DNA of 64,000 nucleotides. Source: Minisyncoccota bacterium (GTDB lineage Bacteria; Patescibacteriota; Minisyncoccia; Phycocordibacterales; UBA918). The notes beneath the pieces are model-generated. The model did no database searches. It was not told the DNA's origin and saw nothing but the letters and a program-made list of their open reading frames with translations. The DNA is taken from positions 139,063-203,062 of the forward strand of contig JAWKSQ010000001.1 of NCBI GenBank assembly GCA_041389045.1, written 5' to 3'. The translations under genes were made by a program, and so were the position numbers. Below are positions 2,058-49,470 of the stretch, piece after piece (the first letter of the stretch is position 1; each line of letters opens with the position of its first letter).

Positions 2058-2114
2058 GCTAACCTCTTTTCACGAAGATAGTTTTTACTATTCGTGATTA
2101 CGTTAGCTTTTTTG
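2057..2114 (+). terminator. nested-hairpin terminator
   Basis: AGCTAAC..TCACGAA..TTCGTGA..GTTAGCT followed by TTTTTT. Confidence 0.6.
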
Positions 2115-2143
2115 ATGCTTAATAACTTGAATTATATTAATTT

Positions 2144-2893: not shown

Positions 2894-2898
2894 AACTT

Positions 2899-3447: not shown

Positions 3448-3474
3448 TTATTATTTATCCTAAATTATTAAAAT

Positions 3475-4008: not shown

Positions 4009-4016
4009 GTCTGTAT

Positions 4017-4640: not shown

Positions 4641-4649
4641 ATAAATAAT

Positions 4650-5309: not shown

Positions 5310-5313
5310 TCGT

Positions 5314-6564: not shown

Positions 6565-6571
6565 CATTACT

Positions 6572-8518
6572 ATGACAGAGAGAAAACAAGAGTCAAAAAG
6601 TGCTTGTGACCATTGCCACAGCGACGCAAATCCTGAGACTGGAGTTCTGGCAATCCTGAGTGCAGGAGGTGCACTAAAATCACTTACACCTGTTTCAGGG
6701 ATGCTCTTAGCAGTGGGTTTTATTGGCTCGTTCTCACTACCTGAAGGCTGGAGTACACTTTTTTATCTACTATCTATCGTGGCAGGATCAATCTTTGTTC
6801 TACGGAGCGCCATCAATGGACTCATCAAACAAAGATTCTTAAATATTAGTTTCTTAGTAGTGATTGCTTCTATAGGAGCAATCTATATTGGTGAGTATGG
6901 CGAGGCGGCTGCAGTAGTTTTCCTCTTTTCATTAGCTGAATGGTTTGAGAGCTTTGGGGTTGAACGTTCACGTAAGGCAGTAGCAGCCCTCATTAAAAAA
7001 TCTCCAAAAGTCGCTCAGTTAAAAACTGGCGAGACTGTGCCTGTTGAAGAAGTTGAGATTGGAATGGTTGTAGTAGTAAAGCCTGGTGAGTTGATTCCAA
7101 TGGACGGTGTTGTTGTGGCTGGAGGTTCCTCAGTTGATGAGGCGGCGATTACTGGTGAGTCAACACCGTCTGATAAGGTCGTCAAAAGTAACGTGTTTGC
7201 TGGTACTCTCAATATACAAGGGTATCTTGAAATACAGGTAGAAAAAATGAGTAGAGATTCTACCTTTGCTAGAATCATTACGCTTATCGAAGAAGCTCAA
7301 GCCTCACGTGCCCCAACGCAAACATTTATTGATAATTTTGCTCGCTACTACACACCGCTAGTTGTTGTAGTGTCGCTACTAACGGTCGTCATTCCTGTGG
7401 TGCTACTTGGACAGCCATTTGATGAGTGGCTGTATCGAGCTATCACGCTCTTGGTGATAGCTTGCCCGTGTGCACTGGTAATTGCAACACCAGTTGCCAT
7501 CGCGTCAGCTATTGGCGGTGCGTCCCGTCACGGTATTTTGATTAAAGGTGGGGTGTATCTTGAAAAATTAGCCAAAGTGAAAGCGGTCGCTTTTGATAAA
7601 ACGCGGACTCTGACATACGGAAGACATACAGTTACAGAAGTCTTAGCGTTTGGTTCACACACCAAAGATGAAGTAATCGCTGACGCGGCTGGTTTGGAAG
7701 CTTTTTCCTCCCATCCGTTAGCAGAAGTAATTACTCAGTATGCAAAAGATCGAAGCATTACTCCACATAGCATGGAGTCGTTTGAAAACGTTGCTGGTAA
7801 AGGTGGAAAGGCACATTGTTTAGTTTGTAACGCAAAAAGTTATATTGGGAACACTAAGCTAATGAAAGAGCACGCGATAGAAGACAAATCGTTTTTAGCA
7901 GAAATTGAACGCTTGGAGAAGTTAGGCCAAACAGTAGTAATGGTGGCTGAAGAATCAGAGCTTATTGGGGCTATCGCAATAGCCGACACTGTACGTGAAG
8001 AATCCTCGTCTGTAGTTACGGAACTAAAGAAAGCTGGAGTAGAGAGTGCCATGCTTACCGGTGATAATACTCTCAATGCCACGTATGTGGCACAGTTAGT
8101 TGGCATAGATGATATTAGGTCTGAACTACTCCCTGAAGATAAAGTGAAAGCAGTGAAAGATTTACAAGCAAAGTATGGTTCAGTGGCGATGGTTGGCGAT
8201 GGGGTCAACGATGCACCCTCCCTAGTAACCTCAAATGTTGGCTTTGCCATCGGAGCAGGTGGTACCGATGCTGCGATTGAATCCTCAGACGTCACTCTTT
8301 TATCAGGTGATCTAACTACTATTCCACGTTCGATTCGATTAGCAAAAGCTACCATGAGAACGATTCGTTTCAATGTAGCTTTGGCTATAGGCGTAAAGAT
8401 TCTATTTTTGATTCTAGTACCGTTTGGCTTAACAAATCTTGTGTTTGCCATTGCAGCAGATTCAGGTATGGCGATTGTAGTTATTCTTAATAGCTTACGG
8501 CTATTTAATAAACAGTAA
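6572..8518 (+). CDS. P1B-type heavy-metal ATPase, CPC type (Zn/Cd/Pb-like)
   Basis: N-terminal CDHCHSD, TM6 ACPCALVIATP, GDGVNDAPSL, and TM8 AADSGMAIVV (DxG). The phosphorylation motif reads DKTRTLT instead of DKTGT. Confidence 0.85.
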   Translation: MTERKQESKSACDHCHSDANPETGVLAILSAGGALKSLTPVSGMLLAVGFIGSFSLPEGWSTLFYLLSIVAGSIFVLRSAINGLIKQRFLNISFLVVIASIGAIYIGEYGEAAAVVFLFSLAEWFESFGVERSRKAVAALIKKSPKVAQLKTGETVPVEEVEIGMVVVVKPGELIPMDGVVVAGGSSVDEAAITGESTPSDKVVKSNVFAGTLNIQGYLEIQVEKMSRDSTFARIITLIEEAQASRAPTQTFIDNFARYYTPLVVVVSLLTVVIPVVLLGQPFDEWLYRAITLLVIACPCALVIATPVAIASAIGGASRHGILIKGGVYLEKLAKVKAVAFDKTRTLTYGRHTVTEVLAFGSHTKDEVIADAAGLEAFSSHPLAEVITQYAKDRSITPHSMESFENVAGKGGKAHCLVCNAKSYIGNTKLMKEHAIEDKSFLAEIERLEKLGQTVVMVAEESELIGAIAIADTVREESSSVVTELKKAGVESAMLTGDNTLNATYVAQLVGIDDIRSELLPEDKVKAVKDLQAKYGSVAMVGDGVNDAPSLVTSNVGFAIGAGGTDAAIESSDVTLLSGDLTTIPRSIRLAKATMRTIRFNVALAIGVKILFLILVPFGLTNLVFAIAADSGMAIVVILNSLRLFNKQ

Positions 8519-8520
8519 TT

Positions 8521-8811
8521 ATGAAAAAGGAAACATTCAAGGAAATAATTGAAACAGACAATAGCATCCTCCTGCTCGATATTAGAGAGCCGGAAGAACT
8601 GCTAATTGAGGAAACAATTCCTGGTGCTAAGAACGTACCAATGGGGAAAGTTTTTACCGAAGCCATTAAAGGAAATTTACCAAAAGATGTACAGATAATT
8701 GTTTTCTGTCGTACAGGTGGTCGTGCTGGTGTAGTGGAAAGAGAGTTACGTGAAAGAGGGTATCTCATTGATGGATTGGAAGGCGGTCTAGAGGCTCTAA
8801 GGGAAACATAA
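8521..8811 (+). CDS. single-domain rhodanese-like sulfurtransferase
   Basis: Active-site loop FCRTGGRAG. About 96 aa. Confidence 0.8.
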   Translation: MKKETFKEIIETDNSILLLDIREPEELLIEETIPGAKNVPMGKVFTEAIKGNLPKDVQIIVFCRTGGRAGVVERELRERGYLIDGLEGGLEALRET

Positions 8812-8817
8812 TTATCT

Positions 8818-9291
8818 ATGCTAGAAATTGTCTCCATTTTTTTAGCTACCAAGTTGCACGTCGTTATTGTTTTGACTGCACTAGTTTTTGTTGCGCTCGC
8901 TTCAGATTATCAACGACTGCGAATTCTTGTATTAGCTACAATCTCATTACCTCTTACTTTTATCGTTAGCAGAAGTGCCTCTTTGTTAGTTGAGAACCCT
9001 CGACCATTTCTTGAGCACGATTTTATGCCATTGGTGGCTCACGCGGCTGACAATGGATTCCCTTCAGATCACGCTTTGTTGGTATTTGCTATCGCTAGTA
9101 TTGTGTTCACGTTTAACAAATCAGCTGGAATAGTTTTGTTTATTATGGCGGCTTTGGTTGGATTTGGAAGGGTGCTGGTTGGGGTACATCACGTTGTTGA
9201 TGTGCTAGGTAGTTTCGTGATTGCAGCATCCATTGTTAGTTTATGCTATCTAACTTTACGCAGTTCTCTTACTGAAATCTATAAAGATTAA
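8818..9291 (+). CDS. PAP2-family phosphatase (undecaprenyl-diphosphatase-like)
   Basis: PSDH and GRVLVGVHHVVD motifs in a polytopic membrane protein. Confidence 0.75.
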   Translation: MLEIVSIFLATKLHVVIVLTALVFVALASDYQRLRILVLATISLPLTFIVSRSASLLVENPRPFLEHDFMPLVAHAADNGFPSDHALLVFAIASIVFTFNKSAGIVLFIMAALVGFGRVLVGVHHVVDVLGSFVIAASIVSLCYLTLRSSLTEIYKD

Positions 9292-9310
9292 GTTTTTTGT
9301 GGGCGTTTTT

Positions 9311-10672
9311 CTATCCGAAGAATATTCCTCCTAATAACCAGAGATTTAGTCCAGCAATGATGATACAGATAATCCAAGCGATTATGCTAAGGATAGTTGA
9401 GTTTGCAAATTCACCCATAATCTTTTTACTGCCTGTAAACACAATGAGGGGAAAGATTGCAAAGGATAGTTGGAGACTAAGAACCACCTGACTTAATATC
9501 AAGAGATCTGTCGCTGCATTCGCACCGTAAAGACCAATAAAGACTACGGCAGGAATAATTGCTAGCAAACGAGTGATGATTCTTCGCATCCAAGGCTTGA
9601 TTCGTAGATTGATGAATCCTTCCATGATGATCTGACCAGCCAGTGTACCGGTAATAGTGGCGTTTTGTCCCGCTGCCAAAAGTGCAATGGCAAACAAAGT
9701 ACTAGCTGCACTAATACCAACTAGTGGCGAAAGGAGTTTGTAAGCATCCTCAATCGCTGCGACTTCATTGAGGCCGTTAGTAAAGAATACTGCAGCCGCT
9801 AGAATTAGAATTGAAGCATTAACAAACAAGGCGATAGTAAGGGCGATAGTTGAATCAAAAGTAGCAAACTTAACTGCTTCCTTTTTACCTTCTTTTGTTT
9901 CAGCATACATTCGAGTCTGAACGATAGATGAGTGCAAGTAGAGATTATGAGGCATTACTGTAGCTCCAATAATACCAATTGCTAAGTAAAGCATTTCAGG
10001 ATTGAATACTAATTGAGCAGTAGGAAGGAACCCAACTAGCAACGGAGCGATAGCGGGAGCTGAAGCAAAAATTTGAAAGGCAAATATACCAGCAATTGTC
10101 GCCATCAAAGTAACAATAAGGGCTTCTAAGTAACGGAAACCCTTATTCTGCAAGAGAAGAATAACTAAAACGTCAACTGCCGTAATGATCACACCGACTA
10201 TAATTGGAATATTAAACAGAAGGTAAAGTGCAATGGCTGAACCAATTACCTCGGCTAAGTCAGTGGCGATAATCATCACTTCAGCCATGAGCCAAAGTAT
10301 GATAGCGACCGGCTTAGGGAATTTATCTTTACACATTTGAGCTAGGTCTCTACCTGTCACAATACCCAGCTTTAGGGCTAGGTGCTGTAGAATCATGGCA
10401 AAAATACTAGACATTAGTACTACGGTAAGTAAGGCGTAGCCAAACTTTGAACCGCCAGCAATACTGGTGGCCCAGTTTCCTGGGTCCATATAACCGACAG
10501 CTACCAAAAAGCCTGGACCAGAATATAAGAGTAATTTTTTAGAAAAGGATAGGTTAGGTGGAACAGGAATTGAGCGGTGTACTTCAGGTAAACTCGGTGT
10601 CTTTTCATCTTCCCCCGCTTCTCTTGAGGCTCCTTTCCAGCCTAAAGCTTTAAATAAATTTGTGTGCGTCAT
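9311..10672 (-). CDS. mntH: Nramp-family divalent metal (Mn/Fe) transporter
   Basis: DPGNWATSIAGGSKFGY and MPHNLYLHS, 11-12 TM segments, 453 aa. Confidence 0.9.
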   Translation of the reverse strand: MTHTNLFKALGWKGASREAGEDEKTPSLPEVHRSIPVPPNLSFSKKLLLYSGPGFLVAVGYMDPGNWATSIAGGSKFGYALLTVVLMSSIFAMILQHLALKLGIVTGRDLAQMCKDKFPKPVAIILWLMAEVMIIATDLAEVIGSAIALYLLFNIPIIVGVIITAVDVLVILLLQNKGFRYLEALIVTLMATIAGIFAFQIFASAPAIAPLLVGFLPTAQLVFNPEMLYLAIGIIGATVMPHNLYLHSSIVQTRMYAETKEGKKEAVKFATFDSTIALTIALFVNASILILAAAVFFTNGLNEVAAIEDAYKLLSPLVGISAASTLFAIALLAAGQNATITGTLAGQIIMEGFINLRIKPWMRRIITRLLAIIPAVVFIGLYGANAATDLLILSQVVLSLQLSFAIFPLIVFTGSKKIMGEFANSTILSIIAWIICIIIAGLNLWLLGGIFFG

Positions 10673-10725
10673 AGGTATAATAAATCGCTTTTTGCGATAG
10701 GTTTTTAATAATGTTTTGTATAGTT

Positions 10726-11160
10726 TTAATCTTTAAACTTTGGAATAGGAGATCCATGAGGGTCATTCACTGGATTGTGTAAAAATTTTGCCAGTCTTTT
10801 TATTACGTCATCACTGAATGCATGTTCTAACTTCTCAGCTTCTTCATGGATTTTGTCTTTTGGAATTTTTAAAGTTTCGTGCAGGAAAACTTCTATAATC
10901 CTGTGTTTATAAGTTAGTTTCTGAGCCGCGCCCAAACCTTTTGCTGTCAAAGTAATTTGACCGTAGATTTCAGCAACTACAAAACCATCTCTAACTAATT
11001 CTTTCACTCGCTCTGAAACAGTTGATTTACTGAGCTTGAGACGTTCAGCAATATGTGTCACCCCAGCTTCACCCGTTGCTTTTTGGATAATATATATCGC
11101 TCTAATATAGTCTTCTTTGGTCGATGATATCGACGGAGGAGTACCCGAAGGTGTTCGCAT
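10726..11160 (-). CDS. mntR: DtxR/MntR-family metal-dependent repressor
   Basis: Winged-HTH N-terminus (EDYIRAIY..LKLSKSTVSERVKELV) and a dimerisation domain with HRIIEVFL..HEEAEKLEH. Lies directly upstream of mntH on the same strand. Confidence 0.8.
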   Translation of the reverse strand: MRTPSGTPPSISSTKEDYIRAIYIIQKATGEAGVTHIAERLKLSKSTVSERVKELVRDGFVVAEIYGQITLTAKGLGAAQKLTYKHRIIEVFLHETLKIPKDKIHEEAEKLEHAFSDDVIKRLAKFLHNPVNDPHGSPIPKFKD

Positions 11161-11246
11161 GTACGAACTATACTCTTATTCGCTTTAAAAGCAAGATAAA
11201 ATATCAACACAGGCAATAATTTATTATATGTAAATTTGAAACGCGA

Positions 11247-11275
11247 TTGACTAAGAGACCCCCTGGGGGTATCAT
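11247..11275 (+). promoter_or_regulatory. sigma70-like promoter with a G/C-tract palindromic operator in the spacer
   Basis: TTGACT (11247-11252), 17-nt spacer, TATCAT (11270-11275). The palindrome ACCCCCTGGGGGT (11258-11270) fills the spacer, 6 nt upstream of the csoR-family gene start. Confidence 0.6.
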
Positions 11276-11281
11276 TGAAAT

Positions 11282-11554
11282 ATGAAACAGGACATTAAGA
11301 AAAAAGTCATCAAAAGACTTAAAATCATTGAAGGTCAGGTTCGTGGGTTACAAAAAATGGTTGAGAAAGAGAAGTATTGTGTTGATGTTATTACCCAGTC
11401 CTCTGCTGTTCGTCATTCTCTAGGATCAGTTGAAGATTTAATGATGGAAAATCATCTTTCAACTCACGTGATTGAACAGATGAGGAAGGGGCAACATAAA
11501 AAAGCTACTCAAGAAATTTTATCGGTATATAAATTAGCTAAGTTTAATAAATAG
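11282..11554 (+). CDS. CsoR/RcnR-family metal-sensing repressor
   Basis: RLKIIEGQVRGLQKMV, then Cys (YCVDV) and NHLSTH. Ligand fingerprint is x-C-H-H. Confidence 0.8.
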   Translation: MKQDIKKKVIKRLKIIEGQVRGLQKMVEKEKYCVDVITQSSAVRHSLGSVEDLMMENHLSTHVIEQMRKGQHKKATQEILSVYKLAKFNK

Positions 11555-11556
11555 CT

Positions 11557-13554
11557 ATGAAACACTCACATGATTGTCATAGTCACGGAAGTCCTGGAAT
11601 GGGTCACGGCTCAGCTGGTACTTTTTTAAAGCGGTTTTGGATCGTTACCTTTCTGCTCATTCCGTTAGTCTTTGCTAACGAAATGATAATGGAGGCTATC
11701 GGTTTGGACTCATTCATTCTGAGCAAGTGGATCGGTTTTGGTATAGCTACAATTATTTTTGGTTTCTCGCTTATCTTTTTCCAGCATGCGTGGCATGAAA
11801 TAAAAGCCAGGGCGTATGGCATGATGACGTTGGTTTCAATCGCGGTTGCCTCAGGATATCTCTTTTCGGTAGCTGCTACATTTATTCCGAGTCTCGAAGC
11901 AGATTTCTACTTGGAAATTTCAACTTTGATTTGGGTGCTTCTCTTTGGGCATTACCTTGAAGCAAAGTCTGGAGCAGCAGCTGGTGATGCCCTTGCTGAA
12001 GTTGCTAAGCTTTTACCAAAACAGGCACACAAACTGGTTGACGGACAAGAAGTTGACGTAAACATTGCAGAGTTGGTTAAAGGCGATATTGTTTTAGTGA
12101 AACCAGGTGAGAAGATTCCAGCTGATGGTTTGATACAAGAAGGTTCTGCCAATATAGACGAAGCCCTGATTAGCGGTGAATCAAAGCCAGTTGAAAAAAC
12201 CGTCGGTGCGGAAGTAGTCGCTGGTGCTATCTGTCTTGATGGCTCACTCACCATTACACTTACCCGAGTTGGTGAACACTCTACCATTGGACAAATTCAA
12301 ACCTTAATCGCCCAGGCCCAACAGACCAAACCAAACTCGCAACGAATTGCCGACAAAGCAGCTGCCGTACTTACATTTGTGGCTGGTATTACTGCGCTGT
12401 TAACTATTTTGGTTTGGACATTCTTGCTAGGCGAGACGTTTGTGTTTGCGGTTACTCTCGCTATTACGGTATTGGTAATTGCTTGTCCGCACGCACTGGG
12501 TTTGGCTATTCCAACTGTGACCACCATCACGACATCACTAGCAGTGAAAAATGGTTTCTTCATCAAGAACCTAGCGAAGATTGAGGTCATTCGGAAAGCT
12601 GACTACGTGGTTTTTGATAAGACTGGCACGCTTACAACTGGTCAGTTTGGGGTGACTGATATTGTTGCGACCAGCAGTCTTTCTAAGGAAGACATTTTAC
12701 ACATTGCCGCTTCGCTTGAACAACATTCTTCACATATTATCGGTGAGTCTATTGTGAAGCATGCTAAAGATTCTAAAGTCGCACTCTCTAATATTTCAGC
12801 CTTTAAGAATGTAGCTGGGAAAGGTATCACTGCCGAACTTGATGGAAAAAGGTATGTGGTTGGTAATAAGGCCCTCATGTCTGAGATGAACATCAATCTT
12901 GATGGTGCTGAAGCCGAATATAAAACTCTGTCTAAGAAAGGCAAAACGACCATCTTGATAGCTGACGGAACTAAGGTGCTTGGTCTAGTCGCTCTGTCTG
13001 ATGCCATCAAACCAGAGTCATTTGAAGCAGTTAACCGGTTGCATGTAATGGGTGTGAAAGTAGCGATGTTAACGGGAGACAATATCCAAGTAGCTAAAAG
13101 TGTAGCCGAAGAACTTGGTATTGATACCTACTTTGCCGAAGTGTTGCCAGAAGATAAATACGAACACATTAAGGAATTGCAAAATGATGGCTCAATTGTA
13201 TTGATGGTTGGCGACGGTGTAAATGATGCACCTGCACTGACCCAAGCAAATGCGGGAATTGCCATTGGTGCAGGAACTGATGTGGCAGTTGAAGCGGGTG
13301 ATGTGGTACTGACTCGCAACAATCCCGAAGACATTGTTCGACTGATTACATTAGCCAAGAAAGTGTATAGCAAAATGATCCAAAATCTTGTGTGGGCGCT
13401 GGGGTATAACGTTGTCGCTATTCCAGCTGCTGCTGGCGTGTTTGCGTACTGGGGCTTCTTCTTACGGCCTGAAATCGGGGCGTTTGTGATGAGTTTATCA
13501 ACGGTGATTGTAGTAGCCAATGCCATGCTCCTCAAACGAATAGATTTAGGTTAA
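11557..13554 (+). CDS. copB: P1B-3 type copper ATPase (CopB-like, CPH motif)
   Basis: His-rich N-terminus (HSHDCHSHGSPGMGHG), TM6 ACPHALGLAIP, DKTGTLT, GDGVNDAPAL, YN in TM7 and MSLST in TM8. Confidence 0.85.
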   Translation: MKHSHDCHSHGSPGMGHGSAGTFLKRFWIVTFLLIPLVFANEMIMEAIGLDSFILSKWIGFGIATIIFGFSLIFFQHAWHEIKARAYGMMTLVSIAVASGYLFSVAATFIPSLEADFYLEISTLIWVLLFGHYLEAKSGAAAGDALAEVAKLLPKQAHKLVDGQEVDVNIAELVKGDIVLVKPGEKIPADGLIQEGSANIDEALISGESKPVEKTVGAEVVAGAICLDGSLTITLTRVGEHSTIGQIQTLIAQAQQTKPNSQRIADKAAAVLTFVAGITALLTILVWTFLLGETFVFAVTLAITVLVIACPHALGLAIPTVTTITTSLAVKNGFFIKNLAKIEVIRKADYVVFDKTGTLTTGQFGVTDIVATSSLSKEDILHIAASLEQHSSHIIGESIVKHAKDSKVALSNISAFKNVAGKGITAELDGKRYVVGNKALMSEMNINLDGAEAEYKTLSKKGKTTILIADGTKVLGLVALSDAIKPESFEAVNRLHVMGVKVAMLTGDNIQVAKSVAEELGIDTYFAEVLPEDKYEHIKELQNDGSIVLMVGDGVNDAPALTQANAGIAIGAGTDVAVEAGDVVLTRNNPEDIVRLITLAKKVYSKMIQNLVWALGYNVVAIPAAAGVFAYWGFFLRPEIGAFVMSLSTVIVVANAMLLKRIDLG

Positions 13555-13571
13555 AATAACAGACATAACGT

Positions 13572-13988
13572 ATGTTTACATTTGTACAACAAACAGCTAA
13601 GAAAATAGTCTGTATTAGCGTACTCACAGTTTTTATCGGCGCCATGTTCGTTAGCTTGTTCCATATGTCTGTAGGCATGGATATGGCTGGTGGCATGTCA
13701 GATTGTCTGTTTATGGAACGAGGTGAAGTGATTTGCCCGATGAATATCGCTGACCATATTGGGGCGTGGAAAGATGCTTTTGTTTCAGTCGTTCCAACCA
13801 TCGTCACGCTTGTATTAGCTGCGGGTGCGATTGCTTTGGTTGTTTCAACAGCACCTTTTTTATTGGGTGCAAAAAGAAAACTGATACCCATCCAACTCAA
13901 TGTGTTTCGTACTCGGACGTACTCCTTTTCATATCGTCCACTACAGGAACTATTTTCTAATGGTATTCTTCACCCAAAACTTTTTTAG
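13572..13988 (+). CDS. hypothetical membrane protein with a Cys/Met motif, paralog of 1605..2057
   Basis: Same conserved blocks as ORF 1605-2057 (SLFHMS, C..ME.G..IC.M, H..AW, QELFSNGILHPKLF). Immediately downstream of copB. Confidence 0.6.
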   Translation: MFTFVQQTAKKIVCISVLTVFIGAMFVSLFHMSVGMDMAGGMSDCLFMERGEVICPMNIADHIGAWKDAFVSVVPTIVTLVLAAGAIALVVSTAPFLLGAKRKLIPIQLNVFRTRTYSFSYRPLQELFSNGILHPKLF

Positions 13989-14044
13989 CTACCGAATATT
14001 GCGATTTAAATCGCTCATTTAGTAGCTTAGAAAAGTAAATAAAC

Positions 14045-14707
14045 ATGCAAAAAACATACTTTCTTGGTGCAATTCTTTTTGCACCATCGATTATTCTCGC
14101 TCACGAGGAAGAACTACATATCACCACGGCGTGGTACCAAGAACCGATGACTGTTGTCGCCATACTTTTAGCTGCTCTGGCTATAAGTGTGCTCAGCTAT
14201 GGAGTCATCACCAAGAGAAAAAACTTCATCACGATACCAGTAATAGCGTTGGTAGCGGTTGCTGTCACAGGTTTAGTTTCCTTTGGTCAAAACAACCTCA
14301 CCTACGAGCCAGACTTAGCGGTCGCAAACTTTGGTGAAGGTCAGTCAGTCACCTTATACAAGAGTCCGAATTGCGGCTGTTGTAGTGGTCACACAGCGGC
14401 ACTCGAAGCAGCTGGCTTTGATGTCACGATTGAAGAAACAAATGAGCTTAACACTATTAAACAATCAAACAATATTCCTCTGGGTGGAGAGAGCTGTCAC
14501 ACGTCTATCATTGGTGATTACGTAGTAGAAGGTCATGTGCCACTAGAAGCCATTGAGAAACTACTGACTGAACAACCTGACATTGCTGGCATTGGATTAC
14601 CGGGAATGCCAATTGGTACCCCAGGTATGCCAGGCAAAAAAACAGCTCCGTATGAAGTTTATCAATTATCAGCTGATGGAGAGATGTCACCTTATCTAAC
14701 TATCTAA
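14045..14707 (+). CDS. DUF411 (CopG-like) metal-binding protein with an N-terminal membrane region
   Basis: YKSPNCGCCSGH, CHTSIIGDYVVEGHVP and GLPGMPIGTPGMPG are the DUF411 signature blocks. Confidence 0.8.
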   Translation: MQKTYFLGAILFAPSIILAHEEELHITTAWYQEPMTVVAILLAALAISVLSYGVITKRKNFITIPVIALVAVAVTGLVSFGQNNLTYEPDLAVANFGEGQSVTLYKSPNCGCCSGHTAALEAAGFDVTIEETNELNTIKQSNNIPLGGESCHTSIIGDYVVEGHVPLEAIEKLLTEQPDIAGIGLPGMPIGTPGMPGKKTAPYEVYQLSADGEMSPYLTI

Positions 14708-14709
14708 AT

Positions 14710-16383
14710 ATGAAATACATATTAAGCATAGGTGCGTTCTTGCTCCTTATTGGTGGGGTGTTTTGGTATACCAGTACTCCAAACATGATGAGGATGAACA
14801 TGGACGGCATGATGATGGGACAAAATATTCCTGAAGAAGACAATTTAGCAATCTTGCACGATGCGAATGTACCAGAAGTACAGCCAACTCAAGTGGTTGA
14901 ACTCAATGATGGCGATACATTTAATCTTACTGCTTCAATTGTGAAGCAAGAAGTCGGTAATCGAACTGTAAAGCGGTTGGCGTATAACGGTCAGATTCCT
15001 GGCCCAGTACTGAAGGTGCAAAAGGGTGCAAAAGTGACCGTCAACTTTATCAACAACATAGACATGCAGACATCACTGCACTCACACGGCTTACGCGGAG
15101 ATTGGCAGATGGACGGTGCAGTACCGATTACTCCAGCCATTGCAGTCGGAGAAAGTTTCTCGTATGAACTTGAGTTCCCTGATACGGGCGTATTTTGGTA
15201 CCACCCACACGTACGTGAAGACTACCAGCAAGAAGTGGGTCTCTACGGAAACATGATTGTAGAAGAAGATGGGTACTGGAATGAGGCTGATCAAGAAGAA
15301 TATCTAATAGTTGATGACATTCTTGAAGACGGAGACTTTACCGAAGGAGTAGTGACTAACACTCTCATGGGCCGCTTTGGTGACACATTGCTCATTAATG
15401 ACAAAGAAGACTATAACTTTACCGTTAAACAAGGAGAAATAACACGGGCGTATATCACTAACGTTGCAAACACTCGAACCTTCCAGTTAGAGTTTGAAGG
15501 TGCACTCATGAAGCTTGTCGGTGGAGATGTGGGGCGAATTGAAAAAGAAGAGATAATCGAGCATCAGACTATAGGAACAGCTGAACGATATGTAATTGAG
15601 CTGTATTACGATACGCCAGGAACGTACGCAATTGATCATCGTGGAGAAACTATTGGTACAGTCACCGTAGAAGCTTCTGGTACAAATAAGAAAGCAGAAT
15701 TCATGACCTTGCGTTCTAACGTTGCTGACTATACTGATATTCGATCTGATGTTGCATCGTTATTATCTAAAACACCTGACAAAAATCTTCGTCTCGATAT
15801 AGAAATGAAAGGCATGATGAGCGGAATGATGAATGATATGAACGGTGGTGGATCAGGTATGGGTATGATGGGCGGAAATGCTGATGACGATATGATGCGT
15901 GAGCACTGCAAGATGATGCCGGAAATGGCTGGCTGTGAACCGTATCTAGAAGGATCTGAAGAAGAGGAAGAAGAACACGGCGAGGATGGTATTGAATGGG
16001 AAGACGATATGGCCATGATGAACAATATGAGTTCTGACGAAAATATCGAATGGGTTATTGAAGACACTGACACAGGAGCAAAGAACGACGAGATTGATTG
16101 GTCATTCAAGACTGGAGACTTAGTGAAGGTGCGTGTCTACAATGACGAAAAAGGTATGCATCCTATGCAGCATCCTCTTCACTTCCACGGTCAACGGTTT
16201 GTTGTCTTGGCAGAAGACGGTGAACTCAATGAAAACATGCAGTGGAAAGACACGGTGTTGATTCCAAAGGGTCAGACTGTAGATATTCTTGTTGATATGA
16301 GTAACCCAGGCAACTGGATGGCTCACTGTCACATCGCTGAACACCTGCACTCAGGCATGATGTTCAACTTTGAGGTGAAGTAA
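14710..16383 (+). CDS. multicopper oxidase with a Met-rich and acidic insertion
   Basis: Copper-site motifs HSHGL, WYHPH, HPLHFHG and HCHIAEHLHSGMM. The insert is MKGMMSGMMNDM..MGMMGG..EEEEEEHGEDG. Confidence 0.85.
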   Translation: MKYILSIGAFLLLIGGVFWYTSTPNMMRMNMDGMMMGQNIPEEDNLAILHDANVPEVQPTQVVELNDGDTFNLTASIVKQEVGNRTVKRLAYNGQIPGPVLKVQKGAKVTVNFINNIDMQTSLHSHGLRGDWQMDGAVPITPAIAVGESFSYELEFPDTGVFWYHPHVREDYQQEVGLYGNMIVEEDGYWNEADQEEYLIVDDILEDGDFTEGVVTNTLMGRFGDTLLINDKEDYNFTVKQGEITRAYITNVANTRTFQLEFEGALMKLVGGDVGRIEKEEIIEHQTIGTAERYVIELYYDTPGTYAIDHRGETIGTVTVEASGTNKKAEFMTLRSNVADYTDIRSDVASLLSKTPDKNLRLDIEMKGMMSGMMNDMNGGGSGMGMMGGNADDDMMREHCKMMPEMAGCEPYLEGSEEEEEEHGEDGIEWEDDMAMMNNMSSDENIEWVIEDTDTGAKNDEIDWSFKTGDLVKVRVYNDEKGMHPMQHPLHFHGQRFVVLAEDGELNENMQWKDTVLIPKGQTVDILVDMSNPGNWMAHCHIAEHLHSGMMFNFEVK

Positions 16384-16400
16384 TAGCGGTATGCACGCAA

Positions 16401-16436
16401 ACTAACAAGACCACTCAATTGAGTGGTCTTGTTAGT
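16401..16436 (+). terminator. 16-bp perfect hairpin terminator
   Basis: ACTAACAAGACCACTC-AATT-GAGTGGTCTTGTTAGT followed by TT. Confidence 0.7.
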
Positions 16437-16493
16437 TTGCTAGACTTGCTGAGATTGATGGGGTATTAACCCCTCTCGATAGGTCTCGCTACG

Positions 16494-16569
16494 TGGTGCG
16501 CCCACTAGGGATCGAACCTAGGACCTTCTCCTTAAAAGGGAGCTGCTCTACCGGCTGAGCTATAGGCGC
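16494..16569 (-). tRNA. tRNA-Lys (anticodon TTT), CCA encoded
   Basis: Manual cloverleaf: acceptor GCGCCTA/TGGGCGC, D arm GCTCAGCCGGTAGAGC, anticodon loop CTTTTAA, T arm CTAGG-TTCGATC-CCTAG, then ACCA. Confidence 0.85.
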
Positions 16570-16745
16570 AGATATTAGATTGTAATACGTATCTCTCCTT
16601 AATAAGGGTAAACAGTATGGGGTACTGTTTACGCGTACCGAGGTGAGCTATAGGCGTATTTATCAAACTTCAATACGTATCTCTCCTTAATAAGGGTAAA
16701 CAGTATGGGGTACTGTTTACGCGTACCGAGGTGAGTTGTGGCCGC
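16558..16745. repeat. 88-bp tandem direct repeat (about 2.1 copies) that includes the first 12 nt of tRNA-Lys
   Basis: The 64-nt core is identical at 16584-16647 and 16672-16735. GAGCTATAGGCG (the tRNA 5' end, 16558-16569) recurs at 16646-16657 and degenerately at 16734-16745. Each unit holds the hairpin GTAAACAGTA-TGGGG-TACTGTTTAC. Confidence 0.8.
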
Positions 16746-23943: not shown

Positions 23944-25875
23944 ATGTATATGAATAGTTTTATTAAAAAAAGTGTTTTAGGGGGAATCATGGCTGTGACT
24001 ATGGTGACTGCGACTGTACCTCTACAAAGAGCGGAGGCGGTTAGCATGACTGATTTGCAGGCGCAGATTCAAGCTTTGTTGGCCCAGATTAATTCCTTAA
24101 AGAAGGTGGTAGACAGTGCGCCGGCCACGACTTGTAGTCCGTTTCTGACGAATCTAACCTTAGGTGATTCAGGTACTGGAGTCACTACTCTACAGAAGTT
24201 TTTACTCAGTCGAGGTCATGTCATCCCAGCTGGGGCAACTGGCTATTATGGTGAACAGACTCGTAGTGCAGTAGCTGCCTTTCAGCTTGCACAAGGAGTT
24301 AGTCCTAGTGCCGGAAATTTTGGACCACTGACCAGAGCAAAGGCTAATGCTCTATGTGTGCCGACGGTCGTAACTACGCCAGTTAATAACACCACTCCAA
24401 CTACTACTGTCACCACTCCAAAGGATGATACAAAAGTCGTTCTAAAAGGGGAGGGTGAGCTAGAAAAGTTTCAGGTTAAGAATGGTGATGATACTAATCT
24501 AGAAGAAGGACAGCAAAATAAGTCAGTACTAGAACTTTCTTTCGTTGGTCGTTATGGTGATGTAAAGGTAAATCGTTTTGATTTAGGTTTTTCACCAGAT
24601 TTAGCTAACAATGAAGACGATCCTTGGGATACCTTTACTGAAGTGTCAGTCTGGGAAGGTAACACCAGATTAGCTAAAGTTGATGGTAGTAAAAAGTCTA
24701 ACTGGAAAGAAGATAAGCAAATAAGTGGCTATACTCTAAGAATGTCAGGGCTCGATTATTTGGTAAAAGAAAATAAAGAAGTCGAACTGACGGTGAAGGT
24801 TACCACGCAAAAAAGTATTAAGGGTACTGATGATGGTGAAATTTGGAACATCTTCGTCCCTAACAACGGAATTAGAGGTGTAGACGCAGCTAATGCAAAT
24901 GTCTACTTGGGTGATACGGCTGATTACGTCACTGTCAGTATTGATAAGGCTGGTAGTACTGACGAACTGATCGTTAAGCGTTCAGACGCAGACCCAGACG
25001 CTACTACTTTTGAACTAAAAGACGATAGTAAGACGGGATTTATCAAGGTGTTTGCCTTCGATATCGATACTGACGACAGTACTCATGATATTGAACTCAG
25101 AAAATTGCCGATTTCACTAACTGTCAGTACTGGAACAGTGAACACCTTCATGCGAGACATCAGACTGAAAGCTCTAGGAAAAACCTACACGAAAAAAACT
25201 ATCACAGATGGAGTCACCAACAATGTTGTCTTTGACCTCAGTCGAAATGATTTCATTATTGATGGTGGTGACAGGATAACCGTTGAAGTAGAAGTAGAAT
25301 TCTATAAACTTTTGCCCGAGTTTGAAAATGCCACCATCACGAGTGAAGTAAATGTGTCCAGTATTGTCGCTGAAGGAGCTAGTAAGCTGACTGGTAGTAA
25401 GCTTTCAGGGAGAGCTTCTAGCGAAGAGCATACTCTGAGTACTAAAGGTATTTCAGTAAAGGCGACCTCAGTTACTAGTACCGTCACTGCAGTAAATGGG
25501 GCACTGAATGACTACGCTACATATATGATGGAACTGAGTGTGACAGCGTTCGGACAGGAGGTATACATTCCGGTCGGAGTTAATAGTGCTATCGAATATT
25601 CCCTTAAAGATGAACTCGGTAATACCATCCCCGCCCTTGGTGTCGCTATCCTCGATTCAAATGCTAAGTTGTCAGGAGATTACTACCGACTTAATAAGGG
25701 AGAGACTAAGAAATTCACTTTGGAGGTGAGCTATCAACCAGGTGTAGCCACTAGCTTAGCTAGACTACAACTACTCGGTATTAACTTTGCCAATAGTGCC
25801 ACTGCTCCAAACCAAAATTGGCGAGCAGTACCTGCTCAACACTTTAAGTCAGACGTAAAGTTAATTGTCGACTAA
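23944..25875 (+). CDS. secreted protein with a peptidoglycan-binding (PG_binding_1-like) domain and a large beta-rich C-terminal region
   Basis: Signal/TM N-terminus, coiled segment, LGDSGTGVTTLQKFL..YGEQTRSAVAAFQ, Thr/Pro linker. 643 aa. Confidence 0.65.
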   Translation: MYMNSFIKKSVLGGIMAVTMVTATVPLQRAEAVSMTDLQAQIQALLAQINSLKKVVDSAPATTCSPFLTNLTLGDSGTGVTTLQKFLLSRGHVIPAGATGYYGEQTRSAVAAFQLAQGVSPSAGNFGPLTRAKANALCVPTVVTTPVNNTTPTTTVTTPKDDTKVVLKGEGELEKFQVKNGDDTNLEEGQQNKSVLELSFVGRYGDVKVNRFDLGFSPDLANNEDDPWDTFTEVSVWEGNTRLAKVDGSKKSNWKEDKQISGYTLRMSGLDYLVKENKEVELTVKVTTQKSIKGTDDGEIWNIFVPNNGIRGVDAANANVYLGDTADYVTVSIDKAGSTDELIVKRSDADPDATTFELKDDSKTGFIKVFAFDIDTDDSTHDIELRKLPISLTVSTGTVNTFMRDIRLKALGKTYTKKTITDGVTNNVVFDLSRNDFIIDGGDRITVEVEVEFYKLLPEFENATITSEVNVSSIVAEGASKLTGSKLSGRASSEEHTLSTKGISVKATSVTSTVTAVNGALNDYATYMMELSVTAFGQEVYIPVGVNSAIEYSLKDELGNTIPALGVAILDSNAKLSGDYYRLNKGETKKFTLEVSYQPGVATSLARLQLLGINFANSATAPNQNWRAVPAQHFKSDVKLIVD

Positions 25876-25902
25876 AGGATAAGTTATAAAGTAACAAAAA
25901 AC

Positions 25903-25929
25903 AAAAACCGCGCCTGAAGGCGCGGTTTT
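25903..25929 (+). terminator. rho-independent terminator (same sequence as 21121-21149)
   Basis: AAAAACCGCGCCTGAAGGCGCGGTTTT. Confidence 0.8.
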
Positions 25930-25969
25930 GGTGTTGTAGGGTTATGTTTTAGTAAAATAAAAACCGCTG

Positions 25970-26056
25970 CGGAGGGAGAGGGATTCGAACCCTCGAAGAG
26001 CTTTCACCCTTAACAGTTTTCAAGACTGCCGCCTTCAACCACTCAGCCATCCCTCC
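25970..26056 (-). tRNA. tRNA-Ser (anticodon TGA)
   Basis: Acceptor GGAGGGA/TCCCTCC, D arm GCTGAGTGGTTGAAGGC, anticodon loop CTTGAAA, long variable arm, T arm GAGGG-TTCGAAT-CCCTC. No encoded CCA. Confidence 0.85.
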
Positions 26057-26152
26057 GCATCAGTTTCTATTTTCCGAGTATTCCCGTTAGCAACAGATAC
26101 TAGCAAATTAAGCCGAAATTGTACATAACACCTATGATACAATTTAAATCAA

Positions 26153-26619
26153 ATGGAACAATCACCACGCGCTATTACCTGGGAAGCCCCAGAGCATAAT
26201 CATACAGAAAAGGGAGGGGATTGGTTTTTTGCTTTCACTATTATATTTATCGCGATTGTTTTGTCAGCGATAATGTTTGGAAACACCCTCTTTGCGTTAC
26301 TAATGGGTATTTCGGGCTTGGCCCTGGCCATTTCAGTGTCTAAGCGACCAGCCATTATCCCTTACGCCGTTACGGTTAGAGGAATTAGAATTAATGAGGA
26401 GGTGTACCCGTATCCGGCGAAGCTTATTCGATTGATGAAGATGATCCTAAGGGTCCACAACTTCTAGTCCAATCAAAGCGTCACTTTATGCCCCTGTTGG
26501 TAATACCGCTACCACCAGACAATATTGATGACATTGAAGACATCCTTAAAGATCGATTACCGGAAGAGCATTTGGAAGAACCACTGTTCGTGAAAATACT
26601 GGAAATATTTGGATTTTAA
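26153..26619 (+). CDS. hypothetical small membrane protein, frame interrupted once
   Basis: ORF 26153-26467 (two TM segments) stops after ..INEEVYPY. An overlapping frame continues ..SIDEDDPKGPQLLVQSKRHFMPLLVIPLPPDNIDD..ILEIFGF to the stop at 26617-26619. The shift lies near 26410-26425. Confidence 0.5.
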
Positions 26620-26654
26620 GGTATGATGCTCCGACGAGTTTTGATGTATTAAAA

Positions 26655-26726
26655 GCTCTCGTAGTTTAATGGATAAAATGCTGGTTTGCGGTACCAGCGC
26701 TCCAGGTTCGATTCCTGGCGAGAGCA
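26655..26726 (+). tRNA. tRNA-Arg (anticodon GCG)
   Basis: Acceptor GCTCTCG/CGAGAGC, anticodon stem CTGGT/ACCAG with loop TTGCGGT, T arm CCAGG-TTCGATT-CCTGG, discriminator A. No encoded CCA. Confidence 0.75.
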
Positions 26727-26876
26727 CAAATAAACACTCCCAATAATATGGGGTGTTTATTTTTGTAGCTCGAAGAGCCGGAGTCTTCGTCCAGGAATCG
26801 AAAACTGTATATCGCACGGAGCAGAAGCAGTGACGGCTGCCGTCCCATGAGGAAGATTACCCTGGCGAGAGCACCA
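26727..26876. repeat. tRNA-linked repeat unit ending in a duplicated tRNA-Arg(GCG) 3' fragment
   Basis: Contains hairpin 26729-26765, short hairpin CGAAGA..TCTTCG 26771-26789, and CCAGGAATCGAA 26791-26802, which is the reverse complement of the tRNA T arm 26707-26718. CCTGGCGAGAGCA at 26861-26873 duplicates 26714-26726 and is followed by CCA. Confidence 0.7.
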
Positions 26877-26954
26877 CATAATATAGTCTTAGTTTGTAGC
26901 CCTTTTACAAACTACCTTTTAGGGGTGTTTCTTAACTTTTGATATAATCACAGA

Positions 26955-27365
26955 ATGAAAATCATAATCTGTTGTTCAATCACAGTTTCAGATAAGGTAT
27001 TACCAATTAGAAAAATTGGAGAATTTGGGCTTTGAGATAGAAATTCCTTTGGGCGTACAACAATACATAGATAATGATTATAAACATCTGAGTAAAAGTG
27101 AGAGGGCTAGTGATAAAAAAGATATGGATTTAATTACTCGCTATTACAAAAAAATTGCTGATAGTGATTATGTCCTAGTAATAAATGCTGAGAAAGATGG
27201 TAGGAAAATTATATAGGCGGGAACACTTTCCTTGAAATGGGATTTGCCCACGTATTAGGTAAAAAGATGTTTGTGTTAAATCCACTGCCGGTAGTTTCCT
27301 ACAGTGATGAACTTGAAGCCATGAACCTGCAAGTGATAAATGGTGATTTGAGTTTAATTAAATAA
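26955..27365 (+). pseudogene. nucleoside 2-deoxyribosyltransferase-like protein, two frameshifts
   Basis: Three frame segments: MKIIICCSITVSDKVLPIRK / LENLGFEIEIP..VLVINAEKDGRK / NYIGGNTFLEMGFAHVLGKKMFVLN..SLIK. The shifts fall at the A run 27001-27005 and the A run near 27205. Confidence 0.6.
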
Positions 27366-27519
27366 CTGTTTCAAACCAACTTATCCCATCCAGACTCTCC
27401 TATGTTCACTGCATCATTGAAAAACTGAACTTCCTGGCCAAGACTCCAAATTAGTCACGAACGCCAATAATTGTTAAACTGTTAGGAGTTAATTGTTAGT
27501 GGGGTTAATTTGAATTCTT

Positions 27520-34811: not shown

Positions 34812-34999
34812 GCATTTGTTTTCTTTCTGAGGAGAAAGAAAACAGCCTTTACGCTTCACAAAACTACAAAACCAGCCGCAGGGCTGGTTTTGTTTAATGT
34901 TTTGTGGGGTCAAGTTTCTAATTCACTACGTTCATAAGAACTTCCTCCCCGACCTCGTCTATTTTGGCATTAAGTAATAGCCAAAATATGACTCCGGTT

Positions 35000-35101
35000 G
35001 GCACACAGGCACGAAACTGAAGCAATTCAGTTTCTAAATCAAAAGCACGATTCTCTCAAAGAATCGTGCTTTTGATTTACCTGTGTGCCCCCGCGAGGAA
35101 T
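35000..35101. repeat. tRNA-linked three-helix module ending in a displaced tRNA-Arg(TCT) 3' fragment
   Basis: Closing helix GGCACACAGG 35000-35009 / CCTGTGTGCC 35080-35089. Hairpin GAAACTGAA-GCAA-TTCAGTTTC 35013-35034. Long hairpin 35036-35078. GTGCCCCCGCGAGGAAT at 35085-35101 duplicates 35306-35322. Confidence 0.7.
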
Positions 35102-35306
35102 GATCCCGCAGTTTCTAATTCTCTATGCCCGCCTGACGGCAGGCTAGCTCATAAGAACTGCTGGACGCAGCTCCCTCGTTTTCTTTCTAGGAAGGAAAGA
35201 AAACATCACTCCGCTGGTTCGATTCCTACGAAAAGTGCCTATGCACTTTTCTCTTGGGGTACGAACAAAAACGGCACACATAATAGTGTGCTCGTTTTTG
35301 TACTCG
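35102..35306. repeat. tRNA-linked repeat unit adjacent to the intact tRNA-Arg(TCT)
   Basis: GGTTCGATTCCT 35216-35227 is the reverse complement of the tRNA T arm region 35317-35328. Hairpin GAAAAGTGC-CTAT-GCACTTTTC lies in 35228-35252 and a long terminator-like hairpin at 35259-35303. Hairpin GTTTTCTTTCT..GAAAGAAAAC lies near 35178-35206. Confidence 0.65.
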
Positions 35307-35378
35307 TGCCCCCGCGAGGAATCGAACCTCGAATAACGGCTTAGAAGTCCGCAGTTATATCCATTTAACTACAAGGGC
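35307..35378 (-). tRNA. tRNA-Arg (anticodon TCT)
   Basis: Acceptor GCCCTTG/CGGGGGC (two G-U pairs), anticodon loop CTTCTAA, T arm CGAGG-TTCGATT-CCTCG, discriminator A. Confidence 0.8.
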
Positions 35379-35455
35379 AATCAACTTGCGAAGCATAGCA
35401 GAAAAAGATGGTGCTGTGAATATTAGATGAAAAGCAAATGGCATCGCGCTTGCAG

Positions 35456-35726
35456 GGTGAAAGGCTCGATCACCTCGCTGAGTATTTTTGTTCAAGATAA
35501 AGTTTTTTCGTGGTCACGAATCACTAAGTATATTTCTGCACTTCGTGCGAAATCCACTAAGTGTTCTCGACCCAGGCTCAACCCTTTTCTTCCCTGTGAA
35601 GGGGAAGAAAAGATGTCTCCGCCTCGCACTAAGGCACGAAAGCAAAGCAGTTTGCTTTCTAAAAGAAAAGCCCAGTCAATTTGTGACTGGGCTTTTCTTT
35701 TACCTTAGTGCGCGATGAGAGGCTCG
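35456..35726. repeat. tRNA-linked repeat unit ending in a displaced tRNA-Val 3' fragment
   Basis: 35456-35492 is homologous to 35715-35751. ACTAAGT-armed hairpins. Hairpin CCTTTTCTTCCC..GGGGAAGAAAAG. Closing helix CGCACTAAGG 35625-35634 / CCTTAGTGCG 35703-35712 encloses hairpins 35636-35660 and 35661-35701. TAGTGCGCGATGAGAGGCTCG at 35706-35726 duplicates 35894-35914. Confidence 0.7.
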
Positions 35727-35896
35727 GTCACCTCGCTAAGTATTTTTGTTCGCTATGCTCCAAAAAGTACTAAGCTCCTCGACCCCGGCTATTTTAATTC
35801 TCCAAGTCTTCGAATTAAAATCACGCCCTTCGAGCCTCACACATCTATGCCTGAGACACAAAATGTCCCAGCAAAAGCTGGGACATTTTGGTCTAG
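35727..35896. repeat. tRNA-linked repeat unit adjacent to the intact tRNA-Val
   Basis: CTAAGT-armed hairpin 35737-35781. Hairpin ATTTTAATTC..GAATTAAAAT. TTCGAGCCTC 35829-35838 is the reverse complement of the tRNA T arm 35907-35916. Terminator-like hairpin 35860-35889. Confidence 0.65.
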
Positions 35897-35969
35897 TGCG
35901 CGATGAGAGGCTCGAACTCCCGACCTTCGCAGTGTAAATGCGCTGCTCTACCAACTGAGCTAATCGCGC
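35897..35969 (-). tRNA. tRNA-Val (anticodon TAC)
   Basis: Acceptor GCGCGAT/ATCGCGC, D arm GCTCAGTTGGTAGAGC, anticodon loop TTTACAC, T arm GGGAG-TTCGAGC-CTCTC, discriminator A. Confidence 0.85.
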
Positions 35970-36055
35970 AGACTTTCATATCTGCGTCGCCATATACTAC
36001 CGGTTTTTCAAATATTATCAATATCTCTCCTGGCAGGTATACTGTGTCATATATT

Positions 36056-38607: not shown

Positions 38608-38692
38608 GCCCAGGTGGTGAAATTGGTATACACGTATCCTTGAGGTGGATATGCCGAAAGGTGTGGAGGTTCAAGTCCTCTCCTGGGCACCA
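38608..38692 (+). tRNA. tRNA-Leu (anticodon GAG), CCA encoded
   Basis: Acceptor GCCCAGG/CCTGGGC, anticodon stem TATCC/GGATA with loop TTGAGGT, long variable arm, T arm GGAGG-TTCAAGT-CCTCT, then ACCA. Confidence 0.85.
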
Positions 38693-38826
38693 GATTAAAG
38701 CCGGCGACTAGCCGGTTTTAATGTGGGCGAGAGGACTTGAAAAGCTTTTGAGGCAGAATTGACTGAAAGGAAATTGTGTCCAAAAGGTCTACTGAACATG
38801 TAATGTTCAAGTCCTCTCCTGGGCAC
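38693..38826. repeat. tRNA-linked repeat unit ending in a duplicated tRNA-Leu 3' fragment
   Basis: Terminator hairpin 38697-38719. GAGAGGACTTGAA 38729-38741 is the reverse complement of the tRNA T arm 38670-38682. GTTCAAGTCCTCTCCTGGGCAC at 38805-38826 duplicates 38669-38690 (22 nt). Confidence 0.7.
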
Positions 38827-39038: not shown

Positions 39039-39140
39039 GCCGGTTTTAATGTGGGCGAGAGGACTTGAAAAGGTTGCCAGCTATTTTGAAAAAATAGCGA
39101 CAACCTGTACTGAACTCCTAGAGTTCAAGCCCTCTTCCAA
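39039..39140. repeat. second, degenerate copy of the tRNA-Leu-linked unit
   Basis: 34 nt are identical to 38711-38744 (GCCGGTTTTAATGTGGGCGAGAGGACTTGAAAAG at 39039-39072). It ends in GTTCAAGCCCTCTTCC, a degenerate tRNA-Leu 3' fragment. Confidence 0.6.
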
Positions 39141-49209: not shown

Positions 49210-49470
49210 CGTAAAAATATTATAACAAGTTTTAATTTCTCTATAGAGTAGCTATAAAAAACTAATGTAGCACTGCTTCAAAATGATCGGTACCAGGGTA
49301 ATCTTTCGCTACACGAACGGTACAGTTTTCACACCTTACTTCGCCAAAGGCTCGTTTCGGCATGTTCAAACTCTTCGATTCTCGACGCTAGTGACGTAGG
49401 TCACTAGCTGTAGCCTAGTCATAAAAAAGAAACCTCTCCCGAAAAGGGGAGAAGCTTCGTTTTCCTGATG

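Follow-up and report, generated by a model that had tools for sequence, protein, structure and literature searches.

A candidate hairpin cassette at the 3' end of a tRNA-Arg(GCG) gene and a family of structured modules behind tRNA genes of Patescibacteria

A direct repeat that spans a tRNA gene from the T-arm to the 3' end, together with a regenerated tRNA, is the classic signature of tRNA-targeting tyrosine integrases. Sublocation classes of these enzymes were reportedly defined by Williams in 2002. Casposons, transposons that depend on Cas1, also insert at tRNA 3' ends and produce target duplications of 14-15 bp. Correia, RPE and REP sequences represent the bacterial MITEs and palindromic elements, and template switching at quasi-palindromes is a well-established route of mutation. 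The genomes of Patescibacteria are tiny, and how genes are gained and lost in them is poorly understood. The window analysed here, a stretch of 64,000 nucleotides from a Minisyncoccota bacterium (contig JAWKSQ010000001.1, positions 139,063 to 203,062), belongs to a genome with a GC content of ~42 %; the scattered single tRNA genes and the presence of PilM and DUF5667 proteins are typical of Patescibacteria. Behind its tRNA-Arg(GCG) gene, the repeated gene end known from integrative elements was found together with an antisense copy of this end and a structured core.

The insert behind tRNA-Arg(GCG) and its insert-free counterparts

The tRNA-Arg(GCG) gene (26655..26726, + strand) is intact according to ARAGORN and Infernal (RF00005, 63 bits); CAA comes next and no CCA is encoded. 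The 3' strand of the T-stem, the 3' strand of the acceptor, the discriminator and one C form the proximal copy S (26714..26727, +) of an exact direct repeat of 14 nt, CCTGGCGAGAGCAC, with the distal copy at 26861-26874 and a spacing of 147. The first-pass annotation had described a 13-nt version (CCTGGCGAGAGCA, 26714-26726 and 26861-26873) followed by CAA at the intact tRNA and by CCA at the distal copy; both matches are exact, and the identity extends to 14 nt. Behind the 14 nt, the proximal copy continues with AA and the distal copy with CA, so that the distal end reads ...GCA-CCA. This distal repeat S' with its CCA (26861..26876, +; CCA at 26874-26876), seen as the ancestral gene end in a displaced position, is no tRNA in its own right, with neither an ARAGORN nor an Rfam match. 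Block shuffles of the window contained 0.44 exact 13-mer pairs within 300 nt; 8 repeat runs were observed, and tRNA gene 3' ends accounted for half of these short-range runs (4/8).

The terminator, the short hairpin and the anti-T-arm segment reported earlier between the two copies were all present. The intrinsic terminator (26728..26765, +; hairpin 26728-26762) has a 13-bp stem with one bulged T, an 8-nt loop and a T-run, and came with the insert. It is followed by a short hairpin, CGAAGA-GCCGGAG-TCTTCG (26771..26789, +), located between a degenerate GCTC resembling the acceptor 5' strand and the antisense arm; at the equivalent position, the hairpin of other family members varies. The antisense arm A (CCAGGAATCGAA, 12 nt, 26791..26802, +) is the exact reverse complement of 26707-26718, that is, of the T-loop and the 3' strand of the T-stem, and pairs with 26855-26865 to form helix P1. 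Alignment to a related locus (L011, see below) and a covariance-model match identified 26803..26854 (+) as a decayed core of class A, in which GGAGC...loop and a small P4-like hairpin (26843-26853) are retained. The 147-bp insert has no credible open reading frame, and its left and right ends show no relation to each other. Genes for a PG-binding protein, YceI and PilM adjoin the locus. The two protein genes directly flanking the tRNA-Arg, 26153-26619 and 26956-27365, both appear frameshifted; one encodes a membrane protein ending in ...LEIFGF*, the other is a small gene starting with MKIIICCSITVSDK. They are either pseudogenes or affected by indel errors of the assembly. Look-ups of the exact proteins of two flanking genes found neither on record.

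A scan with the 22-nt 3' end of the tRNA, limited to one genome per species, yielded 86 loci (designated L), of which 62 were from organisms other than Planctomycetes. In L036, a Ca. Elulimicrobium sp. (Patescibacteria), and in L019, an identical tRNA-Arg(GCG) is followed at once by CCA and then by ~70 nt homologous to the flank F of the window (26877..26945, +). L036 additionally shares the end of the upstream gene and a divergent tRNA-Ser with the window. Removal of 26727-26873 (147 bp) produced an end-to-end alignment of the window with L036 and L019, and this colinearity supports the insertion reading. Compared as sequences, the loci demonstrate that a 147-bp unit, delimited by the repeated gene end, has been inserted or lost. 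The first-pass annotation had considered the distal fragment to be the ancestral tRNA end with an encoded CCA, the present 3' end being supplied by an inserted unit, and had proposed a comparison with orthologous tRNA-Arg(GCG) genes. Both parts of this proposal agree with the relatives, which encode CCA and are free of the insert: removal of the 147 bp restores colinearity, and CAA and terminator, absent from the junction in L036 and L019, came with the insert. Owing to these two loci, the orthologues do not present the contrary picture of genes without CCA and without any insert-free allele. The alignments thus support the distal CCA-bearing fragment as the likely ancestral junction and the arrival of CAA and terminator with the insert. 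The empty allele in L036 and L019 could be ancestral or could go back to recombination of one repeat with the other, which removed the unit precisely. In the window, the empty-site junction would read ...GAGAGCA directly joined to CCACATAAT, and the junction of a circular or tandem form ...GAAGATTAC joined to CCTGGCGAGAGCACAAATAAAC.

The inserted cassette brings its own copy of the last 13-14 nt of the tRNA, then CAA and the intrinsic terminator; the tRNA gene is thereby preserved whole and keeps a terminator, but its transcript now depends on CCA addition. The original end, S'-CCA with the native flank, was displaced 147 bp downstream. An encoded CCA is not a general marker of an ancestral end or of polarity: it occurred in only 10 of the 62 non-planctomycete loci, and the tRNA-Leu of the window, L009 and L075 show the reverse pattern, a proximal copy with CCA and a distal copy without. 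For annotation, this means that neither a displaced tRNA end nor an encoded or missing CCA should lead to a pseudogene or polarity call without comparison to an empty site. A metagenome scan with the upstream 643-aa protein yielded only a 1.3-kb contig that ended short of the tRNA. The ~70-nt flank after tRNA-CCA (26877-26945) is conserved in the window, L036 and L019, with a different next gene in each. This flank may be the promoter-bearing end of older cassettes instead of a plain chromosomal flank.

Layout, structure and distribution of the module family

The insert belongs to a layout that recurs behind tRNA-Arg(GCG) in many Patescibacteria: the gene end S, a short trailer with a terminator, the antisense arm A, a core of 60-110 nt, S' and another terminator. 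The same layout was present behind other tRNA genes, with arms that match each of them (Arg-TCT, Val and Leu in the window; Ser, Lys and Tyr elsewhere). In a strict test with 9-mer seeds, A and S' were detected downstream of 17 of 117 Patescibacteria tRNAs, upstream of none, and at none of 384 planctomycete tRNAs. Seed or covariance-model evidence placed modules behind 5 of the 7 tRNAs of the window and behind rplK. The covariance models R1 for class A and R2 for class B retrieved 5 class-A and 2 class-B copies in the window and 15 and 19 copies, respectively, in the loci. The family is widespread in Patescibacteria and comprises two core classes.

Within the window, the class-A module behind tRNA-Leu(GAG) (38669..38826, +) has an intact core (covariance match 38730-38817, 76.9 bits) and the order S (22 nt, then CCA), small terminator, A, class-A core, S' (then CAG) and terminator. 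A second, older class-A module of the same array (39058..39135, +; 59.7 bits) has a decayed S'. Behind tRNA-Val(TAC), a class-B module (35706..35914, -; 73.9 bits) consists of S, terminator, A, core and S' with a 21-nt repeat, and an R2 match at 35512..35623 (-) is an orphan class-B core without a tRNA-like end, an older member of the array. The module behind tRNA-Arg(TCT) (35085..35322, -) has a 17-nt repeat, a terminator, the arm GTAGGAATCGAA and a long core. A decayed class-A module is located downstream of tRNA-His (49295..49385, -; 40.7 bits). The only copy at a protein gene is class-A-like and occupies the 3' end of rplK, encoding L11 (60052..60157, +; R1 match 60068-60157, 25.8 bits, E 8e-4). 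Its order is S (GTAAACGTAGAA), a new stop codon, A (TTTACGTTTAC), core, S' (again GTAAACGTAGAA) and terminator. The arms are copies of the final 12 nt of rplK and the stop codon is supplied by the insert; without it, the reading frame would continue to ...GVNVEQST*. As the arms of this copy are not derived from a tRNA, tRNA likeness follows from the target and is not a conserved feature of the modules.

The closest relative of the Arg(GCG) insert is the module at the equivalent position in L011 with 79 % column identity. Against L011, the window core is missing ~19 nt, namely the 3' strands of P2 and P3, and the R1 match (26791-26863; 27.7 bits, E 2.9e-4) was among the weakest. Judged by this alignment, the Arg(GCG) copy is a decayed relic of the module family and, with a part of the core lost, probably inert.

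The class-A core is a three-way junction. A and S' form the long helix P1, P2/P3 make up an extended hairpin with a loop that often reads GAGCGAAGCGAA, and a GTACYG junction leads to P4, a 5-bp hairpin with a TGTAA loop which uses the universal TTC of the T-loop. RNAalifold predicted 16 pairs for class A, with compensatory changes in 13. Among the 15 covariance-model matches, in an alignment fitted to the model, 95.5 % of cells were paired vs 65.7 % in shuffles, and the covariation score on this fitted alignment was 0.705 vs 0.21 in shuffles and at most 0.25 in slid controls. Class B has the conserved strings GACGGAGC...GCGAGTC, GGGTCGNG and CSTGACCGA. A G.U pair was invariant in 9 of 9 class-B sequences, thus the tRNA-sense strand is the one that folds. 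The structure of the folded strand is under selection. In several copies, P1 equals the coaxial helix of acceptor and T-stem. Known structured elements were considered and rejected. ARAGORN and Infernal gave no sign of a further or permuted tRNA or of a tmRNA on either strand, and the minus-strand fold had z = +0.2. For a hammerhead ribozyme, the junction strand lengths do not fit by inspection, and Rfam scans gave no match; a group I intron would need a much larger core and likewise had no Rfam match. Target-primed reverse transcription with A as primer-binding site was dismissed as well, for no workable strand polarity was found.

One core subfamily has an identical junction/P4 sequence, GTACTGAACATGTAATG, and a second is characterized by the P2 pair AGGTTGYC/GACAACCT. 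These subfamilies were present behind Arg-GCG, Arg-TCT, Leu and Ser genes in different genomes, and the arms in each copy were always equal to the local gene end. Judging from these shared sequences, the cores have spread between targets. L085 contains two near-identical complete units of 142 bp in tandem. Mixed arrays, with decayed copies at greater distance from the gene, were found in L075, in L009 and behind the tRNA-Leu of the window. Defence or transporter genes are present in some units. L069 (606-3799) contains, between copies of the tRNA-Arg 3' end S, an AEP-TOTE primase fused to a helicase and a Fic/DOC protein with an HTH domain; L019 (2245-4734), likewise between such copies, has a P-type cation ATPase with a mini class-A module and then the conserved neighbour ruvX behind it. 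A clean A-core-S' end was not present in all cargo-carrying units. In L009, a class-A core has taken the place of the T-loop in a pseudo-tRNA-Arg(TCT) (1090-1280) just upstream of the intact gene; on the downstream side of that gene, the antisense arm also covers the complement of its encoded CCA (TGGTGCCTCCACG).

Two further observations concern tRNA flanks. The tRNA-Lys gene (16494-16569, -) has a copy of its 5'-terminal 13 nt located 88 nt upstream, and within 16556-16735 a 64-nt unit is duplicated in tandem with a period of 88. This upstream repeat may correspond, on the 5' side, to the modules at 3' ends. A motif (C)TAGCGAGRCCTAYYGARAGG..TAA(A)TA lies behind tRNA 3' ends of differing identity in the window (16455-16493, -), L008, L063, L069 and L019; in the other loci it stands directly after tRNA-Arg or after S', and in L069 it forms the tRNA-proximal end of the gene-carrying island.

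The family appears to be undescribed in Rfam and in the literature searched. Rfam scans of 25500-27500 and 34900-36000, at the gathering threshold and at E<=10, revealed no plausible family, and only genuine tRNAs passed. A literature search for tRNA-linked elements of Patescibacteria/CPR, integrons, MITEs and T-loop insertions found no description, which does not prove absence. Comparison of the locus to phage records by megablast gave no match, and scans of viral contigs with module patterns gave nothing or three chance matches in high-GC contigs without tRNA. The distribution suggests that the 3' flanks of Patescibacteria tRNA genes are hypervariable sites filled with structured modules.

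Origin and role of the modules

In most units a terminator separates S from A and leaves no space for a promoter, which favours a role at the DNA level. With slightly better than even confidence, we read the 147 bp as a protein-less hairpin cassette inserted into the 3' end of tRNA-Arg(GCG) by in-trans recombination within S at a folded hairpin. Integration and loss would occur by recombination inside the shared S segment; the crossover point is not placeable within the repeat. The reaction would be catalysed in trans, and the folded A:core:S' hairpin would serve as the site of recombination by imitating, as a single strand, the duplex target, in resemblance to the recombination of integron attC with attI or of CTX-phage attP(+) with dif. 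The arm A might be re-matched to new targets by quasi-palindrome template switching. Neither a free or circular form nor a donor copy of the module was found, viral scans included, and the search for a recombinase linked to any module was negative. Beyond the single locus, we suggest tentatively, and with considerable doubt, an undescribed cassette-capture system in which folded elements with or without cargo would be moved by an in-trans recombinase, gene 3' ends regenerated, integron-like arrays built and arms re-templated for each target. If the modules are recombination sites, they provide a new route of gene capture that spares the target gene and may embody a programmable, target-mimicking principle of integration. 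If they are RNAs instead, they constitute two new widespread classes of structured RNA that are built on a copy of the neighbouring gene end.

The G.U pairs and conserved loops fit a role as RNA equally well, and this is the main rival reading. The modules would then be functional non-coding RNAs resembling tRNA minihelices, with a three-way junction inserted into a mimic of acceptor and T-stem. They would be transcribed from the tRNA promoter by read-through and matured by tRNA-processing enzymes, with indels and arrays as by-products of homologous recombination between the repeated gene ends. The strong covariation, the G.U pairs on the sense strand including the invariant one, and the loop motifs GAGCGAAGCGAA and TGTAA are in line with this, as are the constant sense orientation downstream of a transcribed gene, the terminator after the module and, in several copies, the identity of P1 with the acceptor and T-stem helix. 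We nevertheless regard such RNAs as an unlikely explanation, for a strong terminator usually parts the module from the tRNA, space for a promoter is absent, and P1 of the rplK copy is not tRNA-like, so that tRNA mimicry is not a conserved feature. Many copies, including the one at Arg(GCG), are decayed, and no Rfam family matched.

Since the repeat spans the tRNA from the T-arm to the 3' end and the tRNA was regenerated, the insert could also be the relic of a conventional integrase island, attL...attR, from which the interior including the integrase gene was later deleted; the kilobase-sized cargo between S copies in L069 and L019 would suit such an origin. An attL/attR-like configuration had been proposed in the first-pass annotation. 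The resemblance lies only in the geometry: the repeat, the regenerated tRNA and the insert-free allele agree with it, but the unit itself, 147 bp without an integrase and part of a structured non-coding family, does not. Independent loci at different tRNAs have the compact layout of 90-190 bp and homologous cores in common, which random internal deletions would not reproduce, and L085 contains two near-identical complete 142-bp units. Among 60 window proteins scanned with Pfam there was no tyrosine recombinase, nor was there one in the arrays of L019 and L069, and no integrase was seen in any array examined. An island relic is thus quite improbable. The protein at 99-1145, with Resolvase and Recombinase domains, is a serine recombinase and the sole recombinase of the 64 kb; it was rejected as the responsible enzyme, being 25 kb from the locus and at the far end of a different island. 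This metal-handling island (99-16493) adjoins the 3' end of tRNA-Lys and has the serine recombinase at its opposite end; it contains genes for DsbA-like, DUF3105 and DUF305 proteins, two P-type ATPases, Nramp, a DtxR-like repressor, a DUF411 protein and a multicopper oxidase. A distal tRNA-Lys fragment belonging to this island was absent from the window.

A local origin without any mobile element would require template switching at the tRNA/terminator palindrome, leading to an inverted and direct triplication of the gene end. In intact copies, e.g., in L007 and L072, S, terminator and A indeed form one long quasi-palindrome. This mechanism leaves the cargo genes unexplained, and homologous cores of 60-110 nt with conserved motifs are common to different tRNAs and genomes, hence we consider it very improbable. 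A chance match of the two 13-nt copies, of which ~0.4 pairs within 300 nt are expected per window, has practically no probability, since the locus also has a 12-nt antisense arm, a homologous module occurs in L011, empty-site alleles exist and four further tRNAs of the window show the same layout.

Comparison with described systems

The modules resemble tRNA-targeting integrative islands with tandem accretion, such as those of the T-loop sublocation class of tyrosine integrases and the tycheposons (bioRxiv 10.1101/2020.12.28.424599), in the duplicated tRNA 3' segment, the regenerated tRNA, the repeated partial tRNA ends and the hypervariable flank. The 14-nt repeat of the tRNA 3' end flanking the insert, the intact tRNA (63 bits) and the insert-free alleles are the marks of an integrative element; an integrase was not found at the locus. 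Unlike the islands, module units are as small as 90-150 bp without an integrase, possess a structured antisense arm and core, and target rplK as well.

With casposons the modules have in common a long target duplication consisting of the tRNA 3' end and repeated insertion at one site. They differ by the lack of Cas1, polymerase and terminal inverted repeats of the element's own, and by the antisense arm, which target duplication does not explain; Cas1 and family B polymerase were absent from the window. Assignment to the casposons fails because Cas1 and element-specific inverted repeats are missing. The small size, the non-coding sequence, the inverted-repeat ends and the potential to form hairpins are shared with the MITEs Correia, RPE and REP. 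The ends of MITEs are element-specific and identical everywhere, whereas the module ends copy each insertion site, and membership fails on these target-specific ends. The arms vary with the target, and the target duplication, short and fixed in MITEs, is 12-22 nt long in the modules and overlaps the arm.

Integrative elements of the CTX-phage type (IMEX), whose folded ssDNA attP mimics dif, also have two inverted target copies, ~70-110 nt apart, able to form a duplex that imitates the chromosomal target, and once integrated they carry the inverted pair at one end, adjoining the displaced half of the target. In the modules, the target is a gene end and not dif, and a phage genome does not belong to the element.

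Integrons have the same order of parts: an anchor site, a unit, an imperfect inverted-repeat hairpin (attC) with an outer arm repeating the anchor, and the next unit. The modules differ in that they were found without IntI, attI or Pc, and their arms are copies of 10-22 nt of the local gene end that change with the target, with the R''/R' boxes (RYYYAAC, GTTRRRY) absent; they are not members of the integrons, since R boxes and IntI are lacking. They are anchored at the 3' ends of tRNA or protein genes, and the tip of the hairpin is a conserved three-way junction. In both systems, arrays contain empty as well as gene-carrying units, the structure is conserved while the arm sequence varies, and only one strand folds well. 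Recombination on a single folded DNA strand may likewise apply to the modules; the sole, indirect hint is the tolerance of G.U (G.T) pairs on the sense strand.
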